Assembly: GCA_016214745.1 (NCBI GenBank)
Contig: JACRNW010000006.1
Location: forward strand, 13,367-77,366
Source: Candidatus Falkowbacteria bacterium
GTDB taxonomy: Bacteria; Patescibacteriota; Patescibacteriia; XYB2-FULL-38-15
Length of the DNA stretch: 64,000 nucleotides
Direction: 5' to 3'
This document shows, one piece after another, positions 21,213 through 59,148 of the stretch. The notes beneath the pieces are model-generated. The model had not been told where the DNA came from. It saw nothing but the letters and a program-made list of their open reading frames with translations, and did not search any database. Position 1 is the stretch's first letter. Each line of letters starts with the position of its first letter. The position numbers and the translations under genes were made by a program.

Positions 21213-22259
21213 ATGACGCATGCGGAGTTACAAAAATTCATAGCATTTTTGATGAAGCGCGGCTGGACAGTTTTTGCGCCGGAAAAACGGCCGGGAGAGG
21301 TTGTTTATGCCGAAGTGCAAGACGCCGCCAAAGTTAAGTTGATTTCCGAACCGCCGCTGCATTCATTTAAAAGATTTTTGGTTCCGCCCGAGGAAACGCT
21401 TTTTGAGTACGAAAAAGACAAACTGAACGAGGTTCGCGATGCGGGAATAAAAATTCCGAAGCAAGTGATTTTTGGCATTAATCCGGTTGATCTGAAAGCG
21501 ATTGTAATGTTAAATCAAATTTTTGAGCGAGATCCCTGGTATCAGGAACGGATGCGGCGGACGCTTATCATCGGCCAGAGTTTAATCCCGGCCGATGTTG
21601 AACATAATATTTTTCAAATTAAATACGAAGAAGACATTTTGGAACATCTGCAGTTTGATATTTTTTTGGAAGTGCAGCCCCTCACCCCTGCCCGCAACGC
21701 CAGCGCTAGCGTGGCAGGCGGGCCAACCCTCTCCCCAAAGGGGAGAGGGGCAGAGTATTTTGTCTACACCGGTTCGGAAGAAGGGCAAAGCAGTTTGGAA
21801 GATTTCGGTTATGAAGATTATGAGCACATCGCTTTCGCCGGACCGATCAGGGAAGAGGGTTTTGATCCCATGATGGTAAAATACCGCGACGCGCTCCGAA
21901 AAACTTACAAAAAAGAAATTTGGGAAAATGATATCGGCGCGCGTTGTATTGAGTGCGGCAAATGCACGCTTATTTGCCCGACCTGTTTTTGTTTTGATAT
22001 GAAAGATCAGCCGGATTTAGTGGGCGATGGCGGGGTGCGCAAGCGCGCTTGGAGCGCTTGTTTTTATAATGATTTTTCCGAAGTCGCCGGCGGGCATAAA
22101 TTTTTAAAAACTACGGCCGAGCGGATTCATTTTTGGTATTATCATAAATTTGTCCGAATTCCGGACCAGATTCAGATTATGGGTTGCGTCGGCTGTGGCC
22201 GGTGCGCCAAGGTCTGTCCGGTGAACATAAATATTTTTAAAGTTCTGGCGGCATTGTGA
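21213..22259 (+). CDS. hydB: [NiFe]-hydrogenase group 3b beta-like subunit (4Fe-4S; AsrA/HydB-like), carrying an in-frame GC-rich insert
   Basis: Two Cys clusters ([16 protein letters not shown]; [13 protein letters not shown]). The segment [26 protein letters not shown] is encoded by the G1-related GC-rich hairpin DNA at 21676-21752. Confidence 0.65.
21676..21752. repeat. In-frame GC-rich element inside hydB (a shortened G1 derivative plus the mini-hairpin ctccccaaaggggagagg)
   Basis: Shares cctgcccgcaacgccagc with G1 copies at 14925 and 33160. The local GC jump is visible in the sequence. Confidence 0.6.
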
Positions 22260-22272
22260 TTGCGATACGAAT

Positions 22273-22662
22273 ATGCCAATACATACGAATGATACGAATA
22301 AAATCATTTATAAAGAACTTTCTTATAAGATTAATGGTATTTTATTCAGGGCGCATAATGAGTTGGGTCGGTATTGTCGCGAAAGGCAGTACGCCGACAA
22401 ATTGGAAGAACTTTGGAAAGAAAATAAGATTAATTACAAAAGAGAAAAGAAAATGCTTGGCGATTTAGTGACAGGTAACATTCCCGATTTTTGTATAGAA
22501 GACAAGATATTGTTAGAAATTAAGGCAAAAAGTTTTATTGTCAAAGAAGATTATTATCAAATACAGCGGTATTTGCAGACAAATAAAATTAAGTTGGGGC
22601 TATTAGTCAATTTTAGAAATCGTTATCTCAAACCTATTCGTATCATTCGCATTAATTCGTAA
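22273..22662 (+). CDS. GxxExxY family protein (PD-(D/E)xK-like small protein)
   Basis: 129 aa matching the GxxExxY family pattern ([22 protein letters not shown]...[45 protein letters not shown]). Confidence 0.7.
22285..22650 (+). mobile_element. GxxExxY gene cassette bounded by 16-bp inverted repeats that overlap the gene's own first and last codons
   Basis: acgaatgatacgaata at 22285-22300 against tattcgtatcattcgc at 22635-22650 (15 of 16 complementary). It sits between hydB and the gamma subunit. A related cargo-less palindrome lies at 3708-3785. Confidence 0.4.
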
Positions 22663-22707: not shown

Positions 22708-23520
22708 ATGCATAACCCATATCAAACCACGACTGTTAAAATTCTAAAAATTGAGGACGAGGGTTCGCGGTCTAAACTTTTTACACTTGAAGCGCCACGC
22801 GACTTTACGGTTCGGAGCGGCCAGTTTGTGGAAATTTCTCTGCCGGGATATGGCGAAGCGCCGATTTCTCTTTGTTCTGATCCGTCAGTCAAAAATAAAT
22901 TTGAGTTGTGCGTTCGAAAAGCCGGAATGGTGACGGGCGCCCTGCACGCCTTGAAAGTGGGCGATAAAGTCGGGGTGCGCGGGCCGTACGGCCGGCCGTT
23001 TCCCGCGGAAATTGGTAAACAAAGAAATTTGCTTTTGGTGGCCGGTGGTTTGGGTTTGGAACCGTTGCGTCCCGCGATTTGGGAAATCATGAAAAACCGC
23101 GAGCAGTATAAAAAAGTCCAAATTTTTTACGGTGCTTGCGACGAAAATGATTTGCTTTTTACAAAAGATTATGATGAGTTGAAGAAAAAAATTGATCTTC
23201 ATATAACATTAGACAAACCAAAAGGCCTTCAAACTCCGGTGGCTTGCGGCACGGGCGTGGTGACAACGCTTTTTGATCACGTTAAACTTTACGAAAATCC
23301 CGTAGCATTTTTGTGCGGCCCGCCCGTGATGTATAAATTTGTTATCAAAAAATTAAAAGAATTAGCTTTTTTGGACAGTGATATATATCTATCGCTTGAG
23401 CGGCGGATGCATTGCGGCGTCGGCGTCTGCAATCATTGCGCCGTCGGAAGTTTTTTTGTCTGCCAGGACGGTCCGGTTTTTTCCTGGGCCGAGTTGAAAG
23501 ATATAAAAGGAGCGATTTAA
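22708..23520 (+). CDS. hydG: [NiFe]-hydrogenase group 3b gamma-like subunit (FAD/NAD-binding oxidoreductase with a 2Fe-2S C-terminal region, PyrK-like)
   Basis: LVAGGLGLEPLRP (NAD-binding) and the C-terminal Cys cluster CGVGVCNHCAVG...C. Confidence 0.65.
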   Translation: MHNPYQTTTVKILKIEDEGSRSKLFTLEAPRDFTVRSGQFVEISLPGYGEAPISLCSDPSVKNKFELCVRKAGMVTGALHALKVGDKVGVRGPYGRPFPAEIGKQRNLLLVAGGLGLEPLRPAIWEIMKNREQYKKVQIFYGACDENDLLFTKDYDELKKKIDLHITLDKPKGLQTPVACGTGVVTTLFDHVKLYENPVAFLCGPPVMYKFVIKKLKELAFLDSDIYLSLERRMHCGVGVCNHCAVGSFFVCQDGPVFSWAELKDIKGAI

Positions 23521-23541: not shown

Positions 23542-24813
23542 GTGTGCTTAACCATTCCCGGTAAAGTTATAGAAATTAAAGATCAAAATGCCTTACTCAA
23601 AACATCAAGTGGAGTAAGGCAAATTAATATTGGGCTCATATCACGCGTAAAAGTAGGTGATTGGCTTCTTGCTTCAATTGATTTAGCGGTCAAAAAAATA
23701 AAAGCGAAAGATGCGGAGGAAATTTTAGAATTACTCAGCGGAAAAAAAATAACAGATACAAATAACGTTAGTTTTAAATTTAGAGAAATTCTAAAAAATG
23801 CTCAAATTGGAGATTTAACAAAAGAAGAAATTATTTATTTACTTAAAACGGAAGGGCAAGAAAAGGAAGTATTATTTTCCGAGGCAGATGCGGTGTGTAA
23901 AGAAAATTTAAAAGATTTTATTTGCTTACATGCGATTGTTGAATTTTCAAATTATTGCGCAAATAATTGTTTTTATTGTGGGCTCCGGAGCGAGAATAAA
24001 ACTGTTGTCCGTTATAGAATGAGTATTTCGGAAATTGTTAAAGTCGCAAATGAAGCGGTCAACAAAATCGGCTATAAGATGATTGTGCTCCAGTCGGGCG
24101 CGGATATGCAATACACAGATGAAATGTTGGTTGAAATTATTAAAAAAATTAAAGCCAAAAGTCGGTGTTTTATTTTTATGAGTGTGGGGGAGCGAAGCGT
24201 TCAATGTTACAAAAAAATGAAAAAAGCGGGGGCGAATGGCGTTTTATTTAGATTTGAAACTTCAAATCCGAAACTTTATAATATTTTACATCCTAAAAAT
24301 ACTTTAAAGGGTGGGCTTCAAAATCGGTTGGCTCTTTTGCGAGAGATAAAAAAAATGGGATATTATATTTCATCAGGTCCGATTATAGGATTGCCCGGCC
24401 AGACTCTAGAAGATTTAGCAGATGATATTTTGATGATGAAAAAATTGAGCGTTGGCATGGCTTCAATGGGCCCGTTTATTCCGTGTGACGGGACACCCTT
24501 AGCGGGCGAGTCGCACGGCGATGTTGAACTTTCTTTAAAGACAATTGCTGCTTCTCGTCTTTTGATACCGAAGGCGCGCATTCCGGTAACAACAGCACTC
24601 GAAACACTTGATCCGCAAAACGCGCGTAAACGAGGATTGCAAAGTGGAGCCAATTCTTTAATGTTTAATTTGACTCCGGCGAAATATCGCAGTAAATACA
24701 AAATTTATCCAAATAAATTTCACGGGCGAGATAAAGATTTGGAAGATTTTGCCCTATACAAGGGAAAGGAGAGTTGGGAAATGCTCACAAGAGAATTTAA
24801 AAAATATATTTGA
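23542..24813 (+). CDS. HypC-like domain fused to a HydE-like radical SAM enzyme
   Basis: GTG start. Residues 1-70 read MCLTIPGKVIEIKDQNALLKTSSGVRQINIGLISRVKVGDWLLASIDLAVKKIKAKDAEEILELL (HypC/HupF signature MC.IP with Cys2). The radical-SAM core HAIVEFSNYCANNCFYCGLRSEN closely resembles HydE/BioB-family CxxxCxxC regions. Confidence 0.7.
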   Translation: MCLTIPGKVIEIKDQNALLKTSSGVRQINIGLISRVKVGDWLLASIDLAVKKIKAKDAEEILELLSGKKITDTNNVSFKFREILKNAQIGDLTKEEIIYLLKTEGQEKEVLFSEADAVCKENLKDFICLHAIVEFSNYCANNCFYCGLRSENKTVVRYRMSISEIVKVANEAVNKIGYKMIVLQSGADMQYTDEMLVEIIKKIKAKSRCFIFMSVGERSVQCYKKMKKAGANGVLFRFETSNPKLYNILHPKNTLKGGLQNRLALLREIKKMGYYISSGPIIGLPGQTLEDLADDILMMKKLSVGMASMGPFIPCDGTPLAGESHGDVELSLKTIAASRLLIPKARIPVTTALETLDPQNARKRGLQSGANSLMFNLTPAKYRSKYKIYPNKFHGRDKDLEDFALYKGKESWEMLTREFKKYI

Positions 24814-24815
24814 TT

Positions 24816-26189
24816 ATGGAAATAATTAATCAAGAAAAAATTTTTGATATTTTGGAAAAAACAAAAGACGCGAGCCAGAGCCGTTTTGAAGAAATAATTA
24901 ATAAAGCGAAAAAGATAAAAAGTTTAGATTTAGAAGAGGTGGGCATTTTGATAAATATTAGCGATGAAAAATTGATACAGAAAATGCAACAGGCGGCGCG
25001 CGAGATAAAAATGGCAATTTACGGGCCACGCCTGGTTTTGTTTGCCCCACTTTATGTTTCAAGTTTTTGTATCAACGACTGTGAGTATTGCGGTTTTCAT
25101 TGCCGGAATGCGACGCCGCGGAAAAAATTATCTTTGGATGAAGTGCGGCAGCAGGTGGAAATTTTGGAAGACATGGGGCACAAGAGATTGCTTTTGGAAT
25201 TTGGTGAAGATCCAAAAGAAAATCCGATTGATTATGTAACAGGTGTAATTAAAACAATTTATGCTACTAAAAAGGATCGCGGTTCAATTCGTAGAGTTAA
25301 TGTTAATATCGCCGCAACGAGCGTGGAAAATTATAAAAAATTAAAAGAAGCGGGGATCGGTACTTATCAACTTTTCCAAGAAACTTATCATCGGCCGACT
25401 TACGAAAAACTTCATTGCGGTCCAAAGGCGGATTACGATCGACAGATTACGGCCATGGATCACGCTTTTGCGGGAGGAATTGATGATTTGGGAATCGGTG
25501 TGCTGTTTGGTCTTTATGATTGGCGTTTTGAGGTTTTAAGTTTAGCGGCACACGCAGATTATATGGAGAAAACTTTTGGCGTCGGGCCGCACACTATTTC
25601 CGTCCCGCGCTTCCGTCCCGCGCCGACAGTTGATTTTAAATCAGAACACGAAGTCAGCGACAATGATTTTTTGAAACTTATCGCCATTTTACGTTTAGCA
25701 GTGCCATATACCGGAATGATTATGTCTACTCGCGAATCGCCGGAAATAAGGCGCCAGGCGTTTGAAATAGGAATTTCGCAAACGAGCGCGGGATCGCGTA
25801 CAACTCCCGGGGGATATAATGAAAAAAATAAAAAAGAAGAATTAGCTCAGTTCAATTTAAGTGATCACCGCACTTTAGATGAAATCGTCCGTGATATTTG
25901 TAAATTGGGATATTTACCGAGTTTTTGTACAGCCTGTTATCGAAGCGGCCGGACTGGCGATGACTTTATGAAGTATGCCAAAGCGGGAACGATACAAAAT
26001 TTTTGTCAACCAAACGCCATTTCAACTTTCAAGGAGTATCTTCTGGATTACGCAACGCCCGAAACGCGCGAGGTGGGGGAAGAAGTGATTAAAAGAGAAA
26101 TTAAAAAAATAAAAGACGCGCGGGTGCGTCAAAAGTTAGAAGAAAAACTCTCTCTGATAGAAAAAGGAAAACGCGATTTGTATTTTTAG
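24816..26189 (+). CDS. HydG/ThiH-family radical SAM tyrosine-lyase-like protein with a HydG-type C-terminal CX2CX22C motif
   Basis: N-terminal cluster FAPLYVSSFCINDCEYCGF. The C-terminal FCTACYRSGRTGDDFMKYAKAGTIQNFC has exactly 22 residues between the second and third Cys. Start placed at ATG 24816 (MEIINQ). Confidence 0.7.
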   Translation: MEIINQEKIFDILEKTKDASQSRFEEIINKAKKIKSLDLEEVGILINISDEKLIQKMQQAAREIKMAIYGPRLVLFAPLYVSSFCINDCEYCGFHCRNATPRKKLSLDEVRQQVEILEDMGHKRLLLEFGEDPKENPIDYVTGVIKTIYATKKDRGSIRRVNVNIAATSVENYKKLKEAGIGTYQLFQETYHRPTYEKLHCGPKADYDRQITAMDHAFAGGIDDLGIGVLFGLYDWRFEVLSLAAHADYMEKTFGVGPHTISVPRFRPAPTVDFKSEHEVSDNDFLKLIAILRLAVPYTGMIMSTRESPEIRRQAFEIGISQTSAGSRTTPGGYNEKNKKEELAQFNLSDHRTLDEIVRDICKLGYLPSFCTACYRSGRTGDDFMKYAKAGTIQNFCQPNAISTFKEYLLDYATPETREVGEEVIKREIKKIKDARVRQKLEEKLSLIEKGKRDLYF

Positions 26190-26265: not shown

Positions 26266-26904
26266 TTAGCGAAAGATTTTGAGAATTTCGCCAAAATCTT
26301 TCGCTTCGTTGCCAAAATTCCGCCGAGCGTAACACTCAGCGATTTCGGGGCGTTCGATGAGTGTTGAGAGGGAATTTATTGGCACTTTGTGTTCTTCTGT
26401 TCCAACTGTTTTGGCGGCAAAAACAGCGGAATAACCTTTTGTGGAAGATGCCCGTTGTTTTACCCAAGTGAGAGCCCACCACTCGGCAACGGGAATGAAA
26501 CTTTTGTTTTCCTTCCGCAGTTTTCCGACTGTCTCGCCGGAAGAAATTACGTCGTCTATCACTACGACGGTTTTTATTCCGACCAAGACTCCAGGGTTAA
26601 TCCTGCCGACATAAGATCGGGGATTTTCTCCAGGAATCCAAACCCTTTTGGCGTGGGGAAATGCTTTCCATGGCCACTGCCAGAGCCAAAACGGGTCCAC
26701 TTTTTCAATGTACTTTTTGACAATCGACGCTCCGTTACCAGGCAGCACGATTAGTGTTGACCATGGATCAAGGTGTTCCCAGCCCTGCCACGCCAACAAA
26801 TTGCTTGTCATTTCTTGTGCGTCAAGAATTGTCAACCCGAATTTCCCGGCCAAAACTTCCTTGACACCGGCTTCTACACCAACATCAACGATCAAGTACC
26901 CCAT
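26266..26904 (-). CDS. phosphoribosyltransferase (type I PRTase)
   Basis: PRPP-binding motif VVVIDDVISSGETV. Start placed at MGYLIVD. Confidence 0.55.
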   Translation of the reverse strand: MGYLIVDVGVEAGVKEVLAGKFGLTILDAQEMTSNLLAWQGWEHLDPWSTLIVLPGNGASIVKKYIEKVDPFWLWQWPWKAFPHAKRVWIPGENPRSYVGRINPGVLVGIKTVVVIDDVISSGETVGKLRKENKSFIPVAEWWALTWVKQRASSTKGYSAVFAAKTVGTEEHKVPINSLSTLIERPEIAECYARRNFGNEAKDFGEILKIFR

Positions 26905-27075
26905 TTTCTTCCTCCTTTGTGCCTCTAGTTGGCAAAAGAAAAACCCCTTCTCTTTCAAGAAGGGGTTTATGGTCTTTGAGATCTTAGTAAATATATCAAA
27001 CACAACCAACCTCTTCTTGGAAGAGTCGATCGTGATGATGATTGGAAGTCGGAATTATGTCAGAGAATATTTTAT

Positions 27076-27612
27076 TCATACGGGGTTATTCAAAAGTTGC
27101 AAGGTTTTTTTAACTGCTTCTTCGGCGGTCTTAACGACATAGCAGGGAAAACTTTTGCGTCCTTTTAATTTTAAGCTACTCAAAATGTTTTCTCCGAAAC
27201 CTTTAATGAAAATTAATGGCTTTTTGTATCTATAAGCAATAGCCAGTTCAGCTAAAGTTCCTGCATCCCCGGGTAAAACAATAATTGCATCGCAACTTAA
27301 AATACCGGCAAAAAGAAAATCGCCAACATCAATTGGGGTACAGATTTCTATACTTACCCATGGATTTGACGAACCTCTTTCTCTCCCCGGAGTGCCTACA
27401 GTGATGCCACCAGCCTTATAAGCGGCTCGGCAAGCTGCTTCAACTACTCCGCTACAACCGCCGGTAATTAAAACAACATTATTTTTAGCCGCTGCCTTGC
27501 CTACTTTTCTGGCCACGTCTAACATCTTAATTCTCTCTTGCTTATTTTTTGGTAAATTAATTTCTTCGGGACCGATAATGCCAATTTGATATTTTTTTTG
27601 TGGTTTGTTCAT
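27076..27612 (-). CDS. Rossmann-fold nucleotide-binding protein, TIGR00725/LOG-like
   Basis: IGIIGPEE...VVLITGGCSGVVEAACRAA...PGDAGTLAELA pattern. Confidence 0.55.
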   Translation of the reverse strand: MNKPQKKYQIGIIGPEEINLPKNKQERIKMLDVARKVGKAAAKNNVVLITGGCSGVVEAACRAAYKAGGITVGTPGRERGSSNPWVSIEICTPIDVGDFLFAGILSCDAIIVLPGDAGTLAELAIAYRYKKPLIFIKGFGENILSSLKLKGRKSFPCYVVKTAEEAVKKTLQLLNNPV

Positions 27613-27825
27613 ATGTTTATTTTAAAATTAAAAATAAAAAACCTCTTGGAAAGAGGTGCAATTTCGTTGATTTAAATAAAATTTATTACCACGACAAGAC
27701 CTCTTTCCTAAGAAATGAAAGAGACGTGATGATGATAAATTTTATTTATATCTTTTTTCATGATTTTAATATACATGATATTAAATATTTTGTCAAATTT
27801 TTAGAGTAAATAGTTTTTGACAATC

Positions 27826-28728
27826 TCAGACAATACTCTTTTTTAGGACCGGCGCAGCGGAGATGATTTTTATTTTGGGAATTTGTTTTGCTTTTAGCAT
27901 GGGATAAGTGTCGGTTATCAAGACTTCCTTAATGGGTGATTTTTTTATTCTCGCGATGGCCGGGCCGGAGAGAACGCCGTGAGCGGCGGCGGCATAGATG
28001 GCGCGGGCGCCGGCACGGTGAAGTGCTTCGGCCGCGCCCGCGAGCGTCCCGGCCGTATCGATCAGGTCGTCAACCAAAACAATGTTTTTATTTTTAACGT
28101 CCGCGCCTTTTGGCAGTGAAATGCGAGCCACATTCGGCCGCGGTCTGTATTTTTTGCAATAGCCGACCGGACCAGCCAAGTTTTTCTTGCCATAAATTTT
28201 CGCGAATTGTTCGGCCCGATGAATCCCGCCTTGGTCTGGAGAAAAAATTAATAAATTATTAAGACACATTTTTTTAAAGTACTCTGCTAACGCCGGATAG
28301 GCACTTAAATGGACAAGCGGCTTGGTAAAAAATTTTTCGTTTTGTCCGCTGTGAAGATTAAAAGTTAAAATTTTGTCCGCACCGGCTGCGGCCAGCAAAT
28401 CAGCCATTAATTTTGCCGTAAGCGGCGCGTTCGGTTGGTCAATCCAATCCTGTCTGGCGTAGCCAAAATAGGGGATAATGACATTTATTTTTTTGGCGGC
28501 GGCGGTTTTTAAAGCATTAATTAAAATGAGTAACTTCAAAAGATTATCCGACGGCGGCATGGTGGAACCAATAACCCACGTCGCCTTGCTGCGAACTTTT
28601 TCTTTTGGCCGGACATAAAGTTCGCCATCGGAGAAATTTTTTATTTCTAAATGGCCGAGTTTGAGGCGGGCGTGGCGTACAAGTGCCTTAGTCAAATCGG
28701 GGTTAGTGTTTGTGGAGAAGAGAAGCAT
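27826..28728 (-). CDS. prs: ribose-phosphate pyrophosphokinase
   Basis: Prs N-terminus (MLLFSTNTNPDLTKALVRHARLKLGHLEIKNFSDGELYV) and the PRPP loop VLVDDLIDTAGTL. Start placed at ATG 28728. Confidence 0.8.
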   Translation of the reverse strand: MLLFSTNTNPDLTKALVRHARLKLGHLEIKNFSDGELYVRPKEKVRSKATWVIGSTMPPSDNLLKLLILINALKTAAAKKINVIIPYFGYARQDWIDQPNAPLTAKLMADLLAAAGADKILTFNLHSGQNEKFFTKPLVHLSAYPALAEYFKKMCLNNLLIFSPDQGGIHRAEQFAKIYGKKNLAGPVGYCKKYRPRPNVARISLPKGADVKNKNIVLVDDLIDTAGTLAGAAEALHRAGARAIYAAAAHGVLSGPAIARIKKSPIKEVLITDTYPMLKAKQIPKIKIISAAPVLKKSIV

Positions 28729-28740
28729 AAAAATTACAAA

Positions 28741-28885
28741 TCTAAAATTACAAATCCTAAATAAATTCAAAACTCAAATATCCAAATTCAAAACTTTTTG
28801 GATTTAGATATTTGATATTATTTGGAATTTGGTGCTTTGAATTTGGAATTTTAAAATTTTGCATTTTGATTTTTGATGTTTGATT
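28741..28885. repeat. AT-rich simple hairpin repeat cluster (family P4)
   Basis: caaatatccaaattcaaaac / tttgaatttggaattt inverted low-complexity units. Confidence 0.5.
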
Positions 28886-29544
28886 TATTCTTTGCCGAAT
28901 TTTTCCGATTGTTGAAGTAGGGAGACGACTTCCTCATCCATCGTCTGTCCAAACTCTTCATAAAATGCGCCGACGGCGCCGAAAAAGGCGGGGGCATCCA
29001 AATAGATCAATTCGTCGACTTCTTTTTTAATCAACTTCGCCGTGTCGGGCGGCGTGACGGGAATTGCCACAATAATTTTCGCCGCGCCGTAAAGTTTTAC
29101 CGTTTTAATCGCCGCGCGCATGGTGAGGCCGGTGGCTAAACCGTCGTCAACAATGACGACATTTTTATTTTTCAAATCGAGCGGCGGGCGCGTGCCGCGA
29201 TAGAGTTTTCGCCGCCGCTCCGCCTCAATTTTTTCTTTGGCAATTTCGTTGTCTAAATAACTCTGATTAATTCCGTAGGCGGCAATAGTTTGTTCATCAA
29301 AAATTCCCTCGCCGGTCTCGGTGATGGCTCCGATCGCAAACTCGGGATTTCCCGGTGCGCCGATTTTTCGAGGAACCACAATGTCCAGCGGCAGGTTTAG
29401 CGCCTCCGCCACTTTAAAACCGATGACCACTCCGCCGCGCGGCAGGGCCAGAATTATTGTGTTTGGGGCATTTTTGTATTTTTGCAGGACTTGGGCCAGT
29501 TTTTGTCCGGCGTCGAGACGGTCTTTGAATGTCATATTAATCAA
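28885..29544 (-). CDS. phosphoribosyltransferase (type I PRTase)
   Basis: 219 aa with VVIVDDGLATGLTM. Confidence 0.6.
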   Translation of the reverse strand: MINMTFKDRLDAGQKLAQVLQKYKNAPNTIILALPRGGVVIGFKVAEALNLPLDIVVPRKIGAPGNPEFAIGAITETGEGIFDEQTIAAYGINQSYLDNEIAKEKIEAERRRKLYRGTRPPLDLKNKNVVIVDDGLATGLTMRAAIKTVKLYGAAKIIVAIPVTPPDTAKLIKKEVDELIYLDAPAFFGAVGAFYEEFGQTMDEEVVSLLQQSEKFGKE

Positions 29545-29665
29545 TTATACCGTTTTTCATGGTTTTTAAAAAGTGGTATAATGTGATAAGGAATCGGGAA
29601 TCGGGAATTAAGGTTATTGCATTATTAAATTTTCCGTAATTCCTAATTCATAATTTATTTACAAT

Positions 29666-30499
29666 ATGCCAGCCAAACCATCCTTTAACGTAAAATTATT
29701 TTTAGAGGAGTTTGTGATTTTTGGTCTTGTTCAGGCCTTAAGCATTTGGGCCGGCCTTTACTTTTTCTCTCACGCCGACTTGGCCGAGATAAAAATTACC
29801 ACTTCTCTCTGGCAGTTTGTCATTGCTTTTGCCATTGCCACGGTTTTGATGATTATCGCCTTGCGGCTCGTGAAGGGAAGTTTATTTTTTAAGACGCTGT
29901 TTTTTTTGGTGAATTTTTTGGGAGCGGGAATAATTTTCGGCATTTTTTTGCCGATGCCCGTGGCCGCCGTTTTGGCGTTTGTTTGGGTTGCCCTCCGGTT
30001 TTTTGTGCCGCGCATTTGGTTGCATAATTTGACAATTATTTTGGGATTGGGAGGCGTTGCCGCGGTTTTCGGCTTGTCGCTGTCCATTGCCGCGGTTTTG
30101 GTTATTTTGTTTGTTCTCTCAATTTATGATTACATCGCCGTTTATAAAACAGAACACATGGTGGAAATGTTTCGGGAGTTGGTGCATCGGGGAGTGATTT
30201 TCGCGGCAATCTTGCCGCTTAAATTTAAAGGTTGGACGGCCGATCTGGCCGAGATTCGGCCGGGCGGTGATTTTATCTTTTTCGGAACGGGCGACTTGAT
30301 CTTACCCTCGATTCTTGCCGTTTCGGCTATTTCGTACGGTCTGGAGAGCGTGGCTTTTTCGGTGGGCGGATCATTTGTCGGGCTCGTAGTTTTGCACATT
30401 TTGTTTACCAGTCAGCGAAAGCGAGCTCCCATGCCGGCTCTGCCGCCGCTCGTATTGTTTTCCGCATTGGGTTTTGTCATTTCATTGTTGATAAAATAA
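29666..30499 (+). CDS. presenilin/signal-peptide-peptidase-like intramembrane aspartyl protease homolog (A22 family)
   Basis: Polytopic. YD motif (LSIYDYIAVY), GxGD motif (FFGTGDLILP) and a PAL motif (MPALPP) occur in the expected order. Confidence 0.55.
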   Translation: MPAKPSFNVKLFLEEFVIFGLVQALSIWAGLYFFSHADLAEIKITTSLWQFVIAFAIATVLMIIALRLVKGSLFFKTLFFLVNFLGAGIIFGIFLPMPVAAVLAFVWVALRFFVPRIWLHNLTIILGLGGVAAVFGLSLSIAAVLVILFVLSIYDYIAVYKTEHMVEMFRELVHRGVIFAAILPLKFKGWTADLAEIRPGGDFIFFGTGDLILPSILAVSAISYGLESVAFSVGGSFVGLVVLHILFTSQRKRAPMPALPPLVLFSALGFVISLLIK

Positions 30500-30513: not shown

Positions 30514-31020
30514 ATGAAGGTTTTAATGGTTATTGCGCAAAAAGATTTTCGCGACGAGGAGTTTTTTGAGCCGCGTGAAGTTTTTATTAAAAATGGTACG
30601 GAAGTGAAAGTCGCGAGCCAAAAGTTAACGGAAGCCCGCGGCCGATTGGGAGGCACAACCATACCTGACGTGACGATTGGCGAGGCGGAAGCTCAAGATT
30701 TTGCCGCCGTAATTTTTGTCGGTGGGCCGGGCGCGGCGGTTTATCTTAATGATTCGGCGGCGCATAAGTTAGCCAGAGATTTTTATGCCGCCGGTAAAAT
30801 TGTGGCCGCGATTTGTCTTGGTCCGTCCATTTTGGCCAATGCGGGATTGCTTCGCGGAGTGAGAGCGACTTGCACTCCGAGCGAGCAAGAAAATTTGAAG
30901 ATGAGGGGAGCGGAGTATACCGGAGCGCCGGTCGAAGTGGACGGGAAAATAGTGACGGCCTGCGGGCCCGAAGCGTCGAGGGAGTTTGGGAAGAAAATAG
31001 TCGAACTGCTAAAACAATAA
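30514..31020 (+). CDS. DJ-1/PfpI family protein
   Basis: 168 aa with the nucleophile-elbow Cys (AAICLGPSILANAG). Confidence 0.8.
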   Translation: MKVLMVIAQKDFRDEEFFEPREVFIKNGTEVKVASQKLTEARGRLGGTTIPDVTIGEAEAQDFAAVIFVGGPGAAVYLNDSAAHKLARDFYAAGKIVAAICLGPSILANAGLLRGVRATCTPSEQENLKMRGAEYTGAPVEVDGKIVTACGPEASREFGKKIVELLKQ

Positions 31021-31108: not shown

Positions 31109-31867
31109 ATGAATAAACCCACACTCGCTATTGCCAGTATGACTTGTTGCGAGGGTTGTCAGGTGGAGATTTTAAATTTAGGAAAACGACTTCTGGATCT
31201 TTTCCAAGTTTTTGATTTGGGAAATTTTTCCTGGGCCGAGGAAAAAAAGGAGAGGCCGAAATACGACGTGGCGGTGATCGAGGGAACTCCGCTCACGCAT
31301 GAGGATGTAAGATATTTGAAAGAATTGCGGAGAAAATCAAAAATTTTGGTTGCCATCGGAAGCTGTGCGCATTTGGGCGGAGTTCAGGAAATAAAAAATT
31401 ACGCCGAGAAAAATAAAAATGAAAAAGTAAAATACGTTTACCCAAAATATCAGCGGATACAAAATCCAACGGTCGTGCCGCTTTGGAAAGTGGTAAAAGT
31501 TGATTATACCGTGCCGTGCTGTCCGATTGATAAAGATGAATTTTTCCGGGTGATTTCCGATATTGCTTTTGGCCGCGCGCCAAAAATTCCTTTACGTCCA
31601 GTTTGCTTTGAATGCCAGACGAGCGGATACGAGTGTCTTTTGCAAAAAGGTCAGCCGTGTATGGGGCCAATTACGATCGGCGGCTGTAAAGCGATTTGTC
31701 TTCGGAGTAAAAGATTTTGTTATGGCTGCCGCGGGCCGCTTCCCGGAGCCGGGCCGCAGATTAAAAAACACTTGCGAAATATTGAAAAATTAGTTGGGAA
31801 AAAATATCTTCGCGAAATTATGGAAACCTACGGCGCGGAAGATGATTTTTTGCGAATTGAGAAATAA
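31109..31867 (+). CDS. hydD: [NiFe]-hydrogenase small (delta-like) subunit
   Basis: TCCEGC (proximal cluster), GSCAHLGG and the distal Cys motifs. Confidence 0.7.
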   Translation: MNKPTLAIASMTCCEGCQVEILNLGKRLLDLFQVFDLGNFSWAEEKKERPKYDVAVIEGTPLTHEDVRYLKELRRKSKILVAIGSCAHLGGVQEIKNYAEKNKNEKVKYVYPKYQRIQNPTVVPLWKVVKVDYTVPCCPIDKDEFFRVISDIAFGRAPKIPLRPVCFECQTSGYECLLQKGQPCMGPITIGGCKAICLRSKRFCYGCRGPLPGAGPQIKKHLRNIEKLVGKKYLREIMETYGAEDDFLRIEK

Positions 31868-31890
31868 GATATTTTGTTTGATATTTCAAC

Positions 31891-31970
31891 CGGAATCCCG
31901 ACGAAAGTCGGAAAATTGCCCAGCTTTCGCTGGGAGTCCAGAAAAAACGGAATCCCGACGAAAGTCGGGT
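31891..31970. repeat. GC-rich double-hairpin unit G2, 1.5 copies
   Basis: ggaatcccgacgaaagtcgg...gcccagctttcgctgggagtccagaaaaaacggaatcccgacgaaagtcggg. Compare 7044-7097. Confidence 0.7.
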
Positions 31971-32027
31971 TTTTGATTTCTCCCCTTAAGGTAAGGGGAG
32001 ATTAAGAGGGGTGAAATGGGGTTGACA

Positions 32028-32056
32028 AACTTGCTAAAATGTGTTATTCTAAATTG
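32028..32056 (+). promoter_or_regulatory. sigma70-type promoter (gTTGACAaac-17-TATTCT) preceding a hairpin-dense roughly 300-nt leader of islet gene D
   Basis: Read from the sequence. The leader at 32060-32360 contains at least 6 GC-rich hairpins (ctccccgaaggggagag, ctccctttaaaaaagggagag, cccccctttatcaagggggga and others). Confidence 0.35.
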
Positions 32057-32365
32057 TTAGTAAATAGTTCTTTTAAAGGTAAAACCCCCTCACTCCAACT
32101 CTCTCCCCGAAGGGGAGAGAGAGTTTCCTCGCCCCACTGGGGAGAGGACTAAGGTGAGGGGGCAACAAGTTCCCAGTTTTCTTTTGGCGGTTTTAAATCC
32201 CTCTCTAACTCTCCCTTTAAAAAAGGGAGAGAAATTCCCCCCTTTATCAAGGGGGGATTAAGGGGGATTTGCGAAGACCCCCAAAAGAAGGCTGGGAATT
32301 TCTCTCGGCCAGAGACAGCAACGTAGTCGCCGCGGGCGACCAGTTGCGAAGAAGGAGAACGAGTC

Positions 32366-32869
32366 ATGAGCGACGAGTTCAGGATGACGACGGGACAGGC
32401 GCATGAGTTGGCGATGGCCTTCGGTCGCAACGGCTGGACCAACGCCGACGTGAAGAAGATGTCTGAGGGCGATCTGCTCGCCCGACTGCTACCGGTCATC
32501 CGGGGGCAGGCCGACGTGAAGAAGCCGGAAATCCCGACCGAGATGACCGTCGGCGGCCGCGTCTACGAGATCCTCTCCTTCCTCCGGGAGGAGGACAACG
32601 GATTCGTCCGCGGCGACGTGATGGTCTCCCGGGCGAAGGAGCTCGGCGCCAACCTCGGCAAGGAGGACTGCGAGTTCCTCCTCACCCACCAGGACGAGAT
32701 TCCGCCCGCGTTGCGGGGCAAAGTCGTCTTCGTCTTCCCGGACTTGCGGCGCCCGGGCGACCGCGAGCACGTCGCGTACCTCCACTGGGACGACGGCGGC
32801 TGGTACCGGCACTGGTACTGGCTCTCGGACGACTGGGACGGCTACGATCGTCTCCTTCGCCGCAAGTAG
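32366..32869 (+). CDS. GC-rich islet protein D (hypothetical, W/D-rich C-terminus)
   Basis: SD gaaggag before the ATG. 167 aa with high GC3. Shares a weak DCEF/FEEF-L-x-T motif with islet proteins A and C. Confidence 0.45.
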   Translation: MSDEFRMTTGQAHELAMAFGRNGWTNADVKKMSEGDLLARLLPVIRGQADVKKPEIPTEMTVGGRVYEILSFLREEDNGFVRGDVMVSRAKELGANLGKEDCEFLLTHQDEIPPALRGKVVFVFPDLRRPGDREHVAYLHWDDGGWYRHWYWLSDDWDGYDRLLRRK

Positions 32870-33018
32870 TGTCCTTGGACCCTGGGTAACTCGGCCCTTC
32901 AAACCGGCCTGGTCGCTCGGACCCTCGGACACTTTGTCCCTTGGCCCCACTTCAAATCCAATGCTTCACAAAGCAAAGGAAATGAAGCGGGGCCGTTTTT
33001 TTATTTAAGATTTTAGAT

Positions 33019-33207
33019 TTTCTCCCCTTAAGGTAAGGGGAGACTAAGAGGAGTTATGAACGGTGGATTTTAGTGCTACGGTTCATAACGCCCCCGCCCG
33101 CCACGCAAGCCAGCCCCGCCTGCAACGCTATGCTTGCATTAGCGGGCAGGTTGCTGGCGTTGCGGGCAGGCCCAGCCCCTCTTATCTTAAGAGGGGAGCG
33201 TTATACT
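33019..33207. repeat. GC-rich composite element G1, copy Y (inverted relative to copy X)
   Basis: The reverse complement of 33070-33200 matches 14908-15040 almost base for base. Confidence 0.8.
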
Positions 33208-33265
33208 GATTTTTTTATTTATCTTTTTATGATATAATGAATAAAATTAGTGAAGAGAATAAATT

Positions 33266-34558
33266 ATGAAAATAAAAATAAGCCACCTCGCCAAAATTGA
33301 AGGGCATGCCAGTTTTTTTGCCGATATGCTCGCCGGCGATATCAAAAACGCCAAATTGAAAATTACGATTGGCGCGCGTTTGATTGAATCAATAATTTTA
33401 AACCGCAATTATATTGAAACGCCGATTGTGACCTCGCGCATTTGTGGCATATGTTCGGTGGCGCACAATATCACAAGCATTAAAGCGATTGAAAACGCAT
33501 TAAAAATAAAAATAAATCCTCAAATTGAACGGCTCCGAAAAGTTTTGGTTTTGGCCGAGCCGATCCAAAGCCACGCGGCGCATCTTTTCTTTTTATCTTT
33601 ATCCGATTTTTTCAAATATGAAAGCGACATTGATTTGATGAAAAAATATCCCGACCTCGCCAAAAAAATTATTTTGATTCGCGATTTTGGAAATAAAATT
33701 AAAGATGTGGTCGGCGGAAGAGATATGCACATGATCGTGACGGAAATCGGCGGGTTTAGAAGAGTGCTTGATGATAAAATAATTCAAAAATTAATTGATG
33801 AAACTGAAGGCGTGCTAGAAGCCGCGATTGGCGTGGCGAAATTTTTTCGGGCGCTTGATTATCCGAAATATGAACGGAAAGTGGAATTTGCGGGACTCAC
33901 CGCGCCGCGCGAGTATGCTTTTTATGACGGCGTAATTGGATCAACTATGGAGTCGGCACGTCCCGTGAAAAAATTCTATAAAGAACTTGTGGAAAAGCAA
34001 ACTGCGGACGATCCGACCAAGCGCGCGCGGCACGAGGGCAAAAGTTTTATGGTCGGCGCGATTGCGCGGTTAAATTTGAGCCACAAATTTTTAAATCCCG
34101 AAGCGAAAAAGTTTTTGACTTTTTTTGACAAATCCCTCTCCAACTCTCCCTTTGGAAAAGGGAGAGGGTCTGTTCTCACGTTTAACACTTTTCACAATAT
34201 TTACGCCCAGTCTGTGGAGCTCGTTCATTGCGTTGAAGAGGCGCAAAAACTGCTCAAAGAATATTTGCGCGATAAATCAAGAAATTTGATGGTAAAATAT
34301 ACTTTAAAAAACGGCGAAGGACTTGGAGCGACCGAGGCGCCGCGCGGCACGCTTTATCATTATTATAAAATTGATAAATATGGTGTGATTCGCGCTTGTA
34401 ATATTATTACTCCGACGGCGCAATTTTTGGATAATTTGGAAAATGATTTGGAAAAATATTTGAATGAGGCAAAAATCAAAGATGAGAAGGATAGAAAATG
34501 GAAAATAAATATGATGGTGCGCGCGTACGATCCTTGTATGACATGTGCTACACACTAA
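33266..34558 (+). CDS. hydA: [NiFe]-hydrogenase large subunit (group 3-like, about 430 aa), ending exactly at the C-terminal His
   Basis: N-terminal RICGICSVAH (L1 motif) and C-terminal DPCMTCATH followed by stop, so there is no cleavable extension. An in-frame hairpin insert lies at 34133-34170. Confidence 0.8.
   Translation: MKIKISHLAKIEGHASFFADMLAGDIKNAKLKITIGARLIESIILNRNYIETPIVTSRICGICSVAHNITSIKAIENALKIKINPQIERLRKVLVLAEPIQSHAAHLFFLSLSDFFKYESDIDLMKKYPDLAKKIILIRDFGNKIKDVVGGRDMHMIVTEIGGFRRVLDDKIIQKLIDETEGVLEAAIGVAKFFRALDYPKYERKVEFAGLTAPREYAFYDGVIGSTMESARPVKKFYKELVEKQTADDPTKRARHEGKSFMVGAIARLNLSHKFLNPEAKKFLTFFDKSLSNSPFGKGRGSVLTFNTFHNIYAQSVELVHCVEEAQKLLKEYLRDKSRNLMVKYTLKNGEGLGATEAPRGTLYHYYKIDKYGVIRACNIITPTAQFLDNLENDLEKYLNEAKIKDEKDRKWKINMMVRAYDPCMTCATH
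34133..34170. repeat. In-frame GC mini-hairpin element inside the hydrogenase large subunit
   Basis: tccctctccaactctccctttggaaaagggagagggtc encodes SLSNSPFGKGRGS. It is near-identical to the intergenic copy at 32208-32231 (tccctctctaactctccctttaaaaaagggagag). Confidence 0.6.
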
Positions 34559-34655: not shown

Positions 34656-34913
34656 ATGCATGACCTTCACGAAGCAGACAGAATTTTAAAATTAGTTTTG
34701 GATCACGCCGAGCGCCATAAGTTGAAGTCGGTGACAAAAGTCGTTATCGGACTTGGCAGCGTGATTGAGCATGGTTCGGAAATAAATCCGGAAAATTTAA
34801 AATTTAATATTGGCGTGCTGGCGCGTCAAACTATGGCGGAAAACGCGGAAGTGGTGGTTAAAAAAATAAAAGCCGATACTTGGGAACTTGAAGAAATAGA
34901 GGGGGATAAATAA
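34656..34913 (+). CDS. hypA: HypA-like N-terminal domain protein (nickel-insertion factor) lacking the C-terminal zinc finger
   Basis: MHDLHEADRILKLVLDHAERHKLKSVTKVVIGLGSVIEHGSEINPENLKFNIG matches the HypA N-domain pattern (MHE-type N-terminus). 85 aa with no Cys; the ORF stops immediately before P1 copy 3. Confidence 0.5.
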   Translation: MHDLHEADRILKLVLDHAERHKLKSVTKVVIGLGSVIEHGSEINPENLKFNIGVLARQTMAENAEVVVKKIKADTWELEEIEGDK

Positions 34914-37193: not shown

Positions 37194-38756
37194 ATGGCTA
37201 AAAATCATAAAAAACCGACAGTTCTCATCATCTTGGACGGTTGGGGCGTTGCGCCGCCGGGGCCGGGTAATGCCATTACTTTAGCTAAAACGCCAACTAT
37301 GTCCGCGCTTTGGAATGAATTTCCTCATACTTTGCTTTCCGCGCACGGCCGAGCCGTTGGTTTGCCGGGAGATCAGGAAGGAAATTCCGAGGCGGGCCAC
37401 ATGAATTTGTCAGCCGGATGGATTGTTAAGCAAGATGCCGTTTATATAAATGAGGGCATTAAAGATGGAACGTTTTTTAAAAACACGGCTTTTCTTGAAG
37501 CCCTGGAGCACTTAAAAAAATATAATTCAAAAGTTCACCTGATGGGTCTGCTTTCAAACGGCGAGAGCGCTCATTCCTTTCCCGACCATCTTTACGCCGT
37601 GCTGGATCTCCTGCATAAACACGAAGTAAATAAAATTTTTTTGCATTTATTTACTGATGGCAGAGACTCTTCCCGTTTTGCCGCGATTAAATTATTGCCG
37701 AAATTAAAAACCCATTTTCATAATGATGAAAAAATAGCGACTATTATGGGGCGGTTCTACGCCATGGATCGCATAAAAAAATGGTCAAGAATTGAAGCGG
37801 CTTACAACGCGATGACCATGGGCCATGGAGCGGCGGCCGAATCCGCCGAAGCAGCAATTTCTTCCGCTTACAATCGCGGTGAAACAGATGAATTTATTAT
37901 GCCGACCGTGATTGTTAATGACCACAAGCCATTAGCGACGATTGATGATAATGATGTGATAATTTTTTTCAATTTGCGATCTGACCGGGCTAGAGAAATT
38001 ACCAAGACATTTGTGCAAGAAGATTTCACGGAAAAAAATCCAGGTTCGTTTAAAAGAAAAAAAATTGCTAAAAATATCAGGTTCGTGGCCTTGACTGATT
38101 TCGGCCCGGATTTGCCGCACATTTTAACCGCTTATCCTTCCCGTGAAATTTTCTCCGCTCTGCCGGCGGTTTTTCGCGATAAAAAACAAATTTATATCGC
38201 CGAGGCGGAAAAATACGCCCACGTTACGTATTTTTTTAACGGAGGCAACGCTGACCCGCTTTACGGAGAAGAAAGAGTGAGAATTCCATCGCCGTCGGTG
38301 GCGCACTACGAAGAAAAGCCGGAAATGAGTGCGGAAAAAGTTACCGCAGAAGTTAGGCGCTGCATTGACGGCGGGCAATATGATTTTATTGCCGTCAATT
38401 TTTGTAATCCCGATATGATTGGTCATACGGGAGATTTGTCGGCTGGAATTAAAGCAGTAGAAGCGGTTGACGCATGTATCGGGAAAATTGTTAGAGGAGT
38501 ATTTAGGATGGATGGAACGGCGATCGTGACGGCTGATCATGGAAATATTGAGGAAATGATAAATGAAAAAAGCGGAGAAATTGACACTGAACATTCAATA
38601 AATCCGGTGCCGCTCATTATTATCGGACCGCGGTTTAAAAATTTAAAACGGAAAAAATTGCGAGGGGGAGTGCTCGCCGATGTGGCTCCGACCATTCTTG
38701 ATGTGATGGGAATCACGACACCGAGGGAAATGACGAGAAAAAGCCTACTTTCATAA
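37194..38756 (+). CDS. gpmI: 2,3-bisphosphoglycerate-independent phosphoglycerate mutase (paralog 1)
   Basis: ILDGWGVAP and the catalytic-Ser region NSEAGHMNL, with C-terminal metal-binding motifs. Confidence 0.85.
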   Translation: MAKNHKKPTVLIILDGWGVAPPGPGNAITLAKTPTMSALWNEFPHTLLSAHGRAVGLPGDQEGNSEAGHMNLSAGWIVKQDAVYINEGIKDGTFFKNTAFLEALEHLKKYNSKVHLMGLLSNGESAHSFPDHLYAVLDLLHKHEVNKIFLHLFTDGRDSSRFAAIKLLPKLKTHFHNDEKIATIMGRFYAMDRIKKWSRIEAAYNAMTMGHGAAAESAEAAISSAYNRGETDEFIMPTVIVNDHKPLATIDDNDVIIFFNLRSDRAREITKTFVQEDFTEKNPGSFKRKKIAKNIRFVALTDFGPDLPHILTAYPSREIFSALPAVFRDKKQIYIAEAEKYAHVTYFFNGGNADPLYGEERVRIPSPSVAHYEEKPEMSAEKVTAEVRRCIDGGQYDFIAVNFCNPDMIGHTGDLSAGIKAVEAVDACIGKIVRGVFRMDGTAIVTADHGNIEEMINEKSGEIDTEHSINPVPLIIIGPRFKNLKRKKLRGGVLADVAPTILDVMGITTPREMTRKSLLS

Positions 38757-59010: not shown

Positions 59011-59148
59011 TGGGAAAAAGAAAATTTAGCCGCGGTGTGAAAAAATTTATTCGCGGGGAGAAAGCGCGTTTTCGCCGGGAAACCGCGGATTTGGGCGAGC
59101 AAAAAAGATTAATTGATGAACTCTACAAAAAATTTTCAAAAATATGAA
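59011..59148 (+). CDS. 45-aa basic peptide, translationally coupled (ATGA overlap) to the downstream radical SAM gene
   Basis: MGKRKFSRGVKKFIRGEKARFRRETADLGEQKRLIDELYKKFSKI. Its TGA stop overlaps the ATG at 59144. Below the ORF-track length cut-off. Confidence 0.25.

Follow-up and report, generated by a model that had tools for sequence, protein, structure and literature searches.

HydG and a HypC–HydE fusion as a putative maturation module of [NiFe] hydrogenases in Candidate Phyla Radiation bacteria and other lineages

Background

[NiFe] and [FeFe] hydrogenases, a textbook case of convergent evolution, are considered to mature by wholly distinct machineries. HypC is known only from the maturation of [NiFe] enzymes, in which its N-terminal cysteine is essential, and the anaerobic origin of the CO ligand of these enzymes is a long-standing question. 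Components attributed to the two machineries meet in a 64,000-nucleotide stretch of DNA (hereafter the window) from Candidatus Falkowbacteria bacterium, a member of the Candidate Phyla Radiation (CPR; Patescibacteria) (contig JACRNW010000006.1, assembly GCA_016214745.1). Here, the genes for the tyrosine-lyase radical S-adenosylmethionine (radical-SAM) enzyme HydG and for a fusion of HypC with HydE are located inside a group-3b [NiFe]-hydrogenase gene set, with all hydrogenase genes on the forward strand.

HypCDEF, seen as the core of [NiFe] maturation, is described as its well-conserved part (PMC9431212), and a replacement of these proteins would therefore be unusual. In the known pathway of [FeFe] maturation, HydE adenosylates the cysteine sulfur; in the current model it strips off the cysteine by radical chemistry (PMC12501116). 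The fusion itself has been noticed twice: Jaffe et al. 2020 listed it as 'fam002', with 'homology to ... hypC', near CPR group-3b hydrogenases, and a preprint on Centrionella (bioRxiv 10.64898/2026.04.11.717937) mentions it in passing, with HypA, HypB and a protease beside it in the symbiont. HydG, the missing HypDEF and a proposed function are mentioned in neither of these works. Full-text searching found no literature that links HydG or HydE to [NiFe] maturation or proposes a pathway of HydG and HypC–HydE for [NiFe] ligands. The recurrent layout described below suggests an undescribed route to the CO and cyanide of these enzymes.

Results and discussion

HydG

The sequence-only reading of the window had placed at 24816..26189 (forward strand) a HydG-like protein with a ThiH/HydG-type N-terminal cluster and a C-terminal CX2CX22C motif, adjoining a HypC–HydE fusion, and had named the HydG and ThiH profiles as the means of telling the two families apart. 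These claims hold. The protein, a tyrosine-lyase radical-SAM enzyme with a C-terminal auxiliary-cluster domain, matches the NCBIfam equivalog TIGR03955 (HydG) with 600.1 bits (E 2e-180, cut-off 312.15), residues 3-459 covering positions 9-470 of the 470-position profile. Its score against ThiH (TIGR02351), 300.7 bits, falls below the cut-off of 380, and that alignment ends at residue 371, short of the C-terminal cluster domain. The comparison confirmed that, judged by its sequence, the reading frame encodes a canonical HydG and not ThiH.

The radical-SAM motif SFCINDCEYCGF has the form CX3CX2C and aligns with that of the crystallised HydG from Thermoanaerobacter italicus (PDB ID: 4WCX). The C-terminal auxiliary-cluster motif, which is absent from ThiH, is represented by FCTACYRSGRTGDDFMKYAKAGTIQNFC; its CX2CX22C spacing (FCTAC-X22-C, 22 residues counted) is retained on alignment to both 4WCX and the HydG from Carboxydothermus hydrogenoformans (PDB ID: 4RTB). 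Full-length alignments to these two proteins score 587 and 403 bits, respectively. The T. italicus protein is 58% and the Carboxydothermus protein 44% identical to the window HydG, and the HydGs linked to other fusions are 48-89% identical to it. In the tree, T. italicus HydG is sister to the fusion-linked HydGs, except the one from locus L037, which is placed outside. Because the window HydG, by identity and by tree, lies deep inside the canonical family, it very probably catalyzes the same reaction.

Conservation of the cluster ligands was followed in an alignment of 55 proteins, comprising the two crystallised HydGs and 53 that are linked to fusions (that of the window included). All 55 keep five of the six cluster cysteines, and 54 keep the sixth, with one residue unread. 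The histidine within AAHADY of the window HydG aligns with that of MLYHANH in 4WCX and is likewise kept in 55 of 55; we take it to be the ligand of the fifth, 'dangler' iron (presumably His265 of T. italicus HydG).

The stop codon of the fusion gene (TGA, 24811-24813) lies at the very start of hydG. If translation begins at a TTG codon at 24810, the two genes overlap by 4 nucleotides; if it begins at the ATG at 24816, the start whose equivalent was picked by the gene caller in an 85%-identical relative, a gap of 2 nucleotides separates them. Either arrangement is compatible with translational coupling. The earlier claim that an overlap at 24810-24816 implies co-translation needs amending: the overlap exists only with the TTG start and spans 4 nucleotides, and 'co-translation' was an imprecise term. 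Exact-sequence look-ups of HydG with either start, of the products of the two genes at the ends of the window and of one other window protein matched no recorded entry.

HypC–HydE fusion

In the fusion protein encoded immediately upstream (23542..24813, forward strand), both domains score above the cut-offs of their families. Residues 1-67 match HypC (TIGR00074, 54.3 bits, cut-off 48; PF01455, 63.3 bits, cut-off 28.5) and align with the HypC structures from Thermococcus kodakarensis, while residues 90-394 match HydE (TIGR03956, 281.4 bits, cut-off 254.6). The barrel aligns with the HydE structures from Thermotoga maritima over residues 81-401 (249 bits) and is about 40% identical to the crystallised enzyme. 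The protein is 100% identical to an NCBI entry from 'Candidatus Falkowbacteria bacterium' and is annotated by NCBI as [FeFe] maturase HydE.

The HypC domain starts with (f)Met-Cys-Leu-Thr-Ile-Pro (MCLTIP), and the HydE part carries the radical-SAM motif C139-X3-C143-X2-C146. Cys2 and the three radical-SAM cysteines are invariant in 25 homologues, and Cys2 and Pro6 are kept in 75 of 75 fusions. The HypC domain is always N-terminal, so that its N-terminal cysteine stays free.

A separate canonical HypC (67-86 residues) with a histidine of the His51 type occurs in 15 related loci and not in the window; in some of them it has a His-rich C-terminal tail. It is encoded directly upstream of the fusion in L012, L014, L017, L047, L056, L057, L060, L062, L065, L069, L073, L074, L076 and L080, and elsewhere in the locus in L038. 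The organisms in question therefore possess two HypC modules.

[NiFe] hydrogenase and nickel-insertion genes

All four group-3b subunits are encoded around the pair, on the same strand. Their best matches are ShyA, ShyB, ShyC and ShyD, with scores far below the equivalog cut-offs, which indicates similarity at the family level only. The beta (Fe-S) subunit (21213..22259; ShyB 128 bits and HydB 118 bits, both short of their equivalog thresholds; Pfam Fer4_22 110 bits) and the gamma (FAD/NAD(P)-binding) subunit (22708..23520; NF006220 248 bits, ShyC 222 bits; domains FAD_binding_6, NAD_binding_1 and DHODB_Fe-S_bind) precede the fusion. The delta (small) subunit (31109..31867; ShyD 178.8 bits, Pfam Oxidored_q6 85 bits) and the alpha (large, catalytic) subunit (33266..34558; ShyA 254.7 bits) follow HydG.

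The large subunit carries RICGICSVAH and DPCMTCATH and is the sole hydrogenase catalytic subunit in the 64 kb. Its closest solved structures are the alpha subunits of sulfhydrogenase I from Pyrococcus furiosus and T. kodakarensis (177 bits), with the RxCGxC, EAPRG, ITPT and DPCxxCxxH motifs aligned. The protein terminates exactly at DPCMTCATH with no C-terminal extension, and hence no C-terminal processing by an endopeptidase is needed. Among the large subunits associated with fusions, 32 of 44 end at the histidine of DPCxxCxxH; a protease-like gene is found mainly where the large subunit is of another type.

Downstream of the large subunit, a reading frame at 34656..34913 (forward strand) encodes a mini-HypA of 85 residues without the zinc-finger domain. 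It begins with MHDLHE, resembling a nickel site, and covers only the nickel-site half of the HypA profile (PF01155, 37.5 bits, positions 1-71 of 112). Orthologues of 84-85 residues follow the large subunit in L001 (16433-16690), L085 (16418-16675) and about 10 other loci. HypB was seen in none of the inspected loci with CPR titles; matches to it occur in loci of Planctomycetota, anammox bacteria, 'Deltaproteobacteria', 'Proteobacteria' and 'uncultured bacterium'. Nickel insertion may thus also be unusually minimal in these CPR operons.

Distribution and neighbourhoods

When a single genome was scanned for each GTDB species, at least 130 relatives of the fusion came to light, and 80 of these loci were fetched. 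One further locus, L003, a 226-kb ENA contig on which the fusion stands alone among unrelated genes, added nothing to the comparison. Neighbourhood counts refer to 82 non-redundant loci, 76 of which have enough downstream sequence for HydG to be counted. Both the HypC and the radical-SAM domain are present in nearly all of the 120 best-scoring protein clusters at 90% identity. The hosts are mostly Patescibacteria; the others are Kuenenia, Brocadiaceae, Wunengus and further Planctomycetota, Thermodesulfobacteriota, Syntrophales, metagenome-assembled genomes labelled 'Deltaproteobacteria' and one such genome of Methylomirabilis.

HydG is encoded within 2.5 kb downstream of the fusion in 51 of 76 loci, the usual spacing ranging from a 4-nucleotide overlap to a 14-nucleotide gap. 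Unbiased clustering of the neighbouring open reading frames (ORFs) placed the [NiFe] subunits at the top (alpha in 44 loci, delta in 40, beta and gamma in 28 each), with response regulators (18), histidine kinases (12), DJ-1 (11) and mini-HypA (10) among the other families. Within the subset of 35 loci with nearly full 20 kb of sequence, a [NiFe] large subunit lies within 10 kb in 16 of the 18 loci that have both fusion and HydG.

The pair adjoins three types of hydrogenase: the group-3b enzymes of CPR and Desulfobacterota-type lineages, a group-1-like enzyme exported by the twin-arginine translocation (TAT) system (L013), and a cytoplasmic sensor-like enzyme in Planctomycetota. The compact relatives L001 and L085 have the order beta-gamma-[HypC–HydE]-HydG-delta-alpha-miniHypA. 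In other lineages the pair is embedded among further maturation genes: HypA-HypB-fusion-HydG-protease stands beside a 3b enzyme in L023, fusion-HydG-protease-HypA-HypB is found in L042, and in L013 the TAT-exported enzyme is followed by HypA-HypB-fusion-HydG. L024, L028 and L036 share the order fusion-HydG-HypA-HypB-small-large-histidine kinase-response regulators. In these three Planctomycetota or anammox-related loci (L024 15705-20782, L028 8372-14092, L036 5392-10157), the cytoplasmic small subunit (328 residues) has no TAT signal and the large subunit comprises 484 residues; the enzyme resembles the H2-sensing regulatory type.

In 11 loci (e.g., L045, L048, L054, L055 and L075), a DJ-1/PfpI gene adjoins the fusion, and it does so even in the absence of a hydrogenase or HydG from the vicinity. 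A conserved neighbour of 364 residues (cluster 12) was considered as the missing scaffold and rejected: the protein resembles the pilin PilX, has a prepilin-type N-terminus and is encoded beside type IV pilus genes.

HypD, HypE, HypF, HydF and HydA

As hypC is normally found beside hypD, HypC–HydE and HydG occupy the place expected for hypCDEF. Pfam scans of the window, which covered those ORFs of at least 150 residues that were judged to be real genes and left aside several overlapping opposite-strand ORFs, revealed no HydA, HydF, HypB, HypD, HypE or HypF, and motif scans of the same 64 kb revealed no match to HydA or HydF. The two kinds of scan agree with the earlier observations that the window holds no [FeFe] hydrogenase and that the [NiFe] large subunit is the only hydrogenase catalytic subunit nearby.

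The same picture emerges from the related loci. Escherichia coli HypD, HypE and HypF used as queries gave zero matches, at E values up to 10, in 1.25 Mb of flanks of the 82 loci, and none of the three is encoded within 10 kb of the fusion in any of the 82. In the same flanks, the same search method finds HypB in 8 loci, HypA in 9-14 and HycI in 3-4. No ORF in the 1.25 Mb of flanks shows the H-cluster motifs of HydA in combination or the CxH...HCxxC motif of HydF. Two candidates were rejected: a HydA-like 'SSCCP' motif in L037, which falls in a histidine-kinase region and not in a hydrogenase, and a HypE-like C-terminus in L057 (PRIC followed by the stop), which shows no homology to HypE.

Proposed role of the pair

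The observed basis consists of the family identities, the catalytic motifs, the gene order with its conservation across phyla and hydrogenase types, and the finding that HypDEF, HydF and HydA are locally absent. The explanation favoured here is as follows: HydG and HypC–HydE probably form a [NiFe] maturation module that replaces HypD, HypE and HypF and supplies the Fe-CO/CN unit. The sequence-only reading had likewise taken the pair for a CO/CN-ligand pathway adapted to serve a [NiFe] enzyme. That idea is supported, though not proven, by the occurrence of the pair in or abutting [NiFe] operons of several phyla and three hydrogenase types, in some loci together with HypA, HypB and a maturation protease, and never with HypD, HypE, HypF, HydF or HydA in the flanks.

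In the proposed sequence of events, HydG would act as in the maturation of [FeFe] hydrogenases, cleaving tyrosine and building an Fe-CO/CN-cysteine unit on the dangler iron. This unit would pass to the HydE barrel of the fusion, which would remove the cysteine by radical-SAM chemistry. The resulting Fe(CO)x(CN)y fragment, instead of dimerising and passing to HydF, would be caught by the N-terminal cysteine of the attached HypC domain; in the 15 loci that also encode a separate canonical HypC, the latter may be the shuttle. The large subunit in its apo form would then receive the iron unit from HypC. Nickel would follow, by way of mini-HypA or, in non-CPR lineages, of HypA and HypB, and the endopeptidase step would be unnecessary for a large subunit that has no C-terminal extension. 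Each tyrosine cleaved by HydG gives one CO and one CN, and two tyrosines are consumed per unit, so that the atoms for Fe(CN)2(CO) would be available. The wider claim, that hundreds of CPR, planctomycete and Desulfobacterota-type species possess a second, HypDEF-independent route to the [NiFe] Fe-CO-CN centre with both CO and CN derived from tyrosine, appears about evenly poised. In a bolder version, these enzymes would carry a non-standard set of ligands, such as Fe(CO)2(CN).

Several observations weigh against a replacement of HypDEF. At the position of E. coli HypC His51, the fusions have A, T, I, M or V; since the equivalent of this histidine is absent, the fused HypC domain may be a docking or scaffold domain and not a delivery chaperone. 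The large subunit retains the arginine of EAPRG and the threonine of ITPT, which we take to be the hydrogen-bond partners of the two cyanides in standard enzymes. In 25 of 76 loci, HydG is not adjacent to the fusion; nine of these are 3b operons, and about 12 lack both HydG and a hydrogenase within 10 kb of the fusion. The product of HydG described for [FeFe] maturation is Fe(Cys)(CO)2(CN), and that proposed for HydE is a di-iron species (PMC12501116); the [NiFe] site needs Fe(CN)2(CO) and has no obvious use for a di-iron species. The data on absence cover the window and the flanks, and HydA, HydF or HypDEF may be encoded elsewhere in the genomes. Finally, the whole case is built on sequence and synteny.

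In an alternative explanation, HypD, HypE and HypF, encoded elsewhere, would make the cyanides and provide the scaffold, and HydG and HypC–HydE would supply only CO or boost the supply of ligands. It seems unlikely, although several facts would suit it. The searches for HypDEF covered the window and the flanks, and hosts such as Kuenenia and the Desulfobacterota-type bacteria, whose genomes are large, could easily hold hypDEF at a distance; the separate His51-type HypC of 15 loci would fit a normal HypC-HypD route, as would a large subunit with the residues expected for a standard site with two cyanides. The hosts are nevertheless mostly CPR bacteria with very small genomes, and HypD, HypE or HypF lies within 10 kb of none of the 82 fusions, though several of the loci do encode HypA, HypB and the protease. 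In addition, the closed symbiont genome lists no HypDEF (bioRxiv 10.64898/2026.04.11.717937).

It is improbable that the pair belongs to an ordinary [FeFe] set, with HydA and HydF elsewhere in the genome and with the HypC fusion and the position in a [NiFe] operon being incidental. HydG and the HydE domain are canonical in sequence and score above their equivalog cut-offs, the NCBI annotation of the fusion names nothing but the [FeFe] maturase HydE, and hydE, hydF, hydG and hydA are not always clustered. Incidental association is difficult to reconcile with a HypC domain with an invariant N-terminal cysteine fused to HydE in at least 130 species, or with a pair that sits between [NiFe] subunit genes, is usually translationally coupled, and travels with three [NiFe] types as well as with HypA, HypB and the protease; furthermore, motifs of HydF and HydA were not found in the 1.25 Mb of flanks.

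Least probable of all, and very unlikely, is a role that yields no diatomic ligands for the active site, with HydG as a mere tyrosine lyase and with, for example, another metallocofactor as the product, or a compound of the sulfur or thiazolidine type formed by HydE. A third of the fusions have no adjacent HydG and the recurrent DJ-1/PfpI neighbour has no obvious place in ligand synthesis, but HydG retains its full equipment of auxiliary cluster and dangler iron, which is not known to serve anything except the building of the Fe-CO/CN unit, and no function of HypC besides handling that unit is known. Also in favour of such a role, HydE is the one among the three [FeFe] maturases whose natural role is least well understood (PMC12501116).

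Other features of the operon and the window

The hydrogenase gene set of the window is interrupted at several points. Between the beta and gamma genes lies a small PD-(D/E)XK gene (PDDEXK_3; 22273..22662, forward strand; PF13366, 67.8 bits), which is not found at the corresponding position in the close relative L085 and is probably a selfish insert outside the system. Selfish-looking small genes (PD-(D/E)XK nuclease, '23S rRNA intervening sequence' four-helix protein, GIY-YIG) occur at varying positions of the hydrogenase operon, at 22273-22662 in the window and in L008, L051, L058, L059 and others, which suggests frequent insertion into this operon.

Five unrelated genes (26266-30499) separate HydG from a DJ-1/PfpI-family gene (30514..31020, forward strand; PF01965, 137.8 bits; TIGR01382, 124 bits). 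Some operon ORFs were considered as conserved parts of the system, namely a DUF6390 gene and a gene of 143 residues in L001, and the ORF at 26266-27009 of the window; they were rejected as singletons with no family match.

A GC-rich insert (31868-33265) divides the delta from the alpha gene. This spacer contains several short GC-rich palindromic repeats, e.g., ctccccttaaggtaaggggag and ggaatcccgacgaaagtcgg, and an ORF of 167 residues (32366-32869) with no family match that is much richer in GC; the region has about 50% GC versus about 40% for the genome. The spacer of L085 holds two tiny ORFs only. That of the window has the appearance of inserted foreign DNA or of a chimera created in assembly.

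Farther downstream, two tandem paralogues of cofactor-independent phosphoglycerate mutase (37194-38756 and 38776-40350) follow the gene for phosphoglycerate kinase. A second radical-SAM protein (Radical_SAM and Fer4_12, 377 residues; 59144-60277) is encoded beside a gene of the amino-acid-kinase family and shows no link to the hydrogenase genes. The sole Rfam match at gathering score in the window is the ribosomal protein L10 leader RF00557 (61105-61255, 47.7 bits).

Implications

If the favoured explanation is true, a widespread module of [FeFe]-type maturases, fused to a [NiFe] chaperone and standing in for HypDEF, would break the separation of the two maturation systems. Tyrosine as the source of CO would be one possible answer to the question of where anaerobically matured [NiFe] sites obtain this ligand, and the module would explain how hydrogenases are matured in the ultra-small genomes of CPR bacteria. 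With only four or five genes, it would also be a compact tool for producing [NiFe] hydrogenases in heterologous hosts.

Comparison with known systems

Among the described systems, the HydE-HydF-HydG assembly of the [FeFe] H-cluster shares both enzymes with this locus: HydG and the HydE domain are of orthologue grade and keep all cluster ligands. The first steps are probably also the same, from tyrosine to CO and CN on a cysteine-bound iron and on to HydE (for the model, see PMC12501116). In contrast to that system, HydE bears an N-terminal HypC, the genes lie inside [NiFe] operons, and neither the HydF scaffold nor the HydA target was found in the window or in the 82 neighbourhoods. The end product here would have to be a mononuclear Fe(CO)(CN)x unit, and not a di-iron cluster bridged by dithiomethylamine.

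With the assembly of Fe(CN)2CO by HypC, HypD, HypE and HypF, the locus shares the client, a large subunit with RxCGxC and DPCxxCxxH, as well as a HypC-type carrier with an N-terminal cysteine and the nickel helpers, that is, HypA, sometimes HypB and sometimes the protease. It differs in that neither the HypD scaffold nor HypF and HypE, which make cyanide from carbamoyl phosphate, turned up in the neighbourhood of a fusion, in that tyrosine would be the source of the ligands, and in that the fused HypC has no equivalent of His51.

HmdB (HcgA), the HydE-like radical-SAM enzyme of the FeGP-cofactor pathway of [Fe]-hydrogenase, offers a third comparison. The fusion is not a member of HmdB, since it scores 68.9 bits against that family (cut-off 320.9), versus 281 against HydE, and no Hmd or other Hcg genes occur in its context. 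What the two have in common is the recruitment of a radical-SAM enzyme of the HydE/BioB type to the cofactor of a hydrogenase other than [FeFe].

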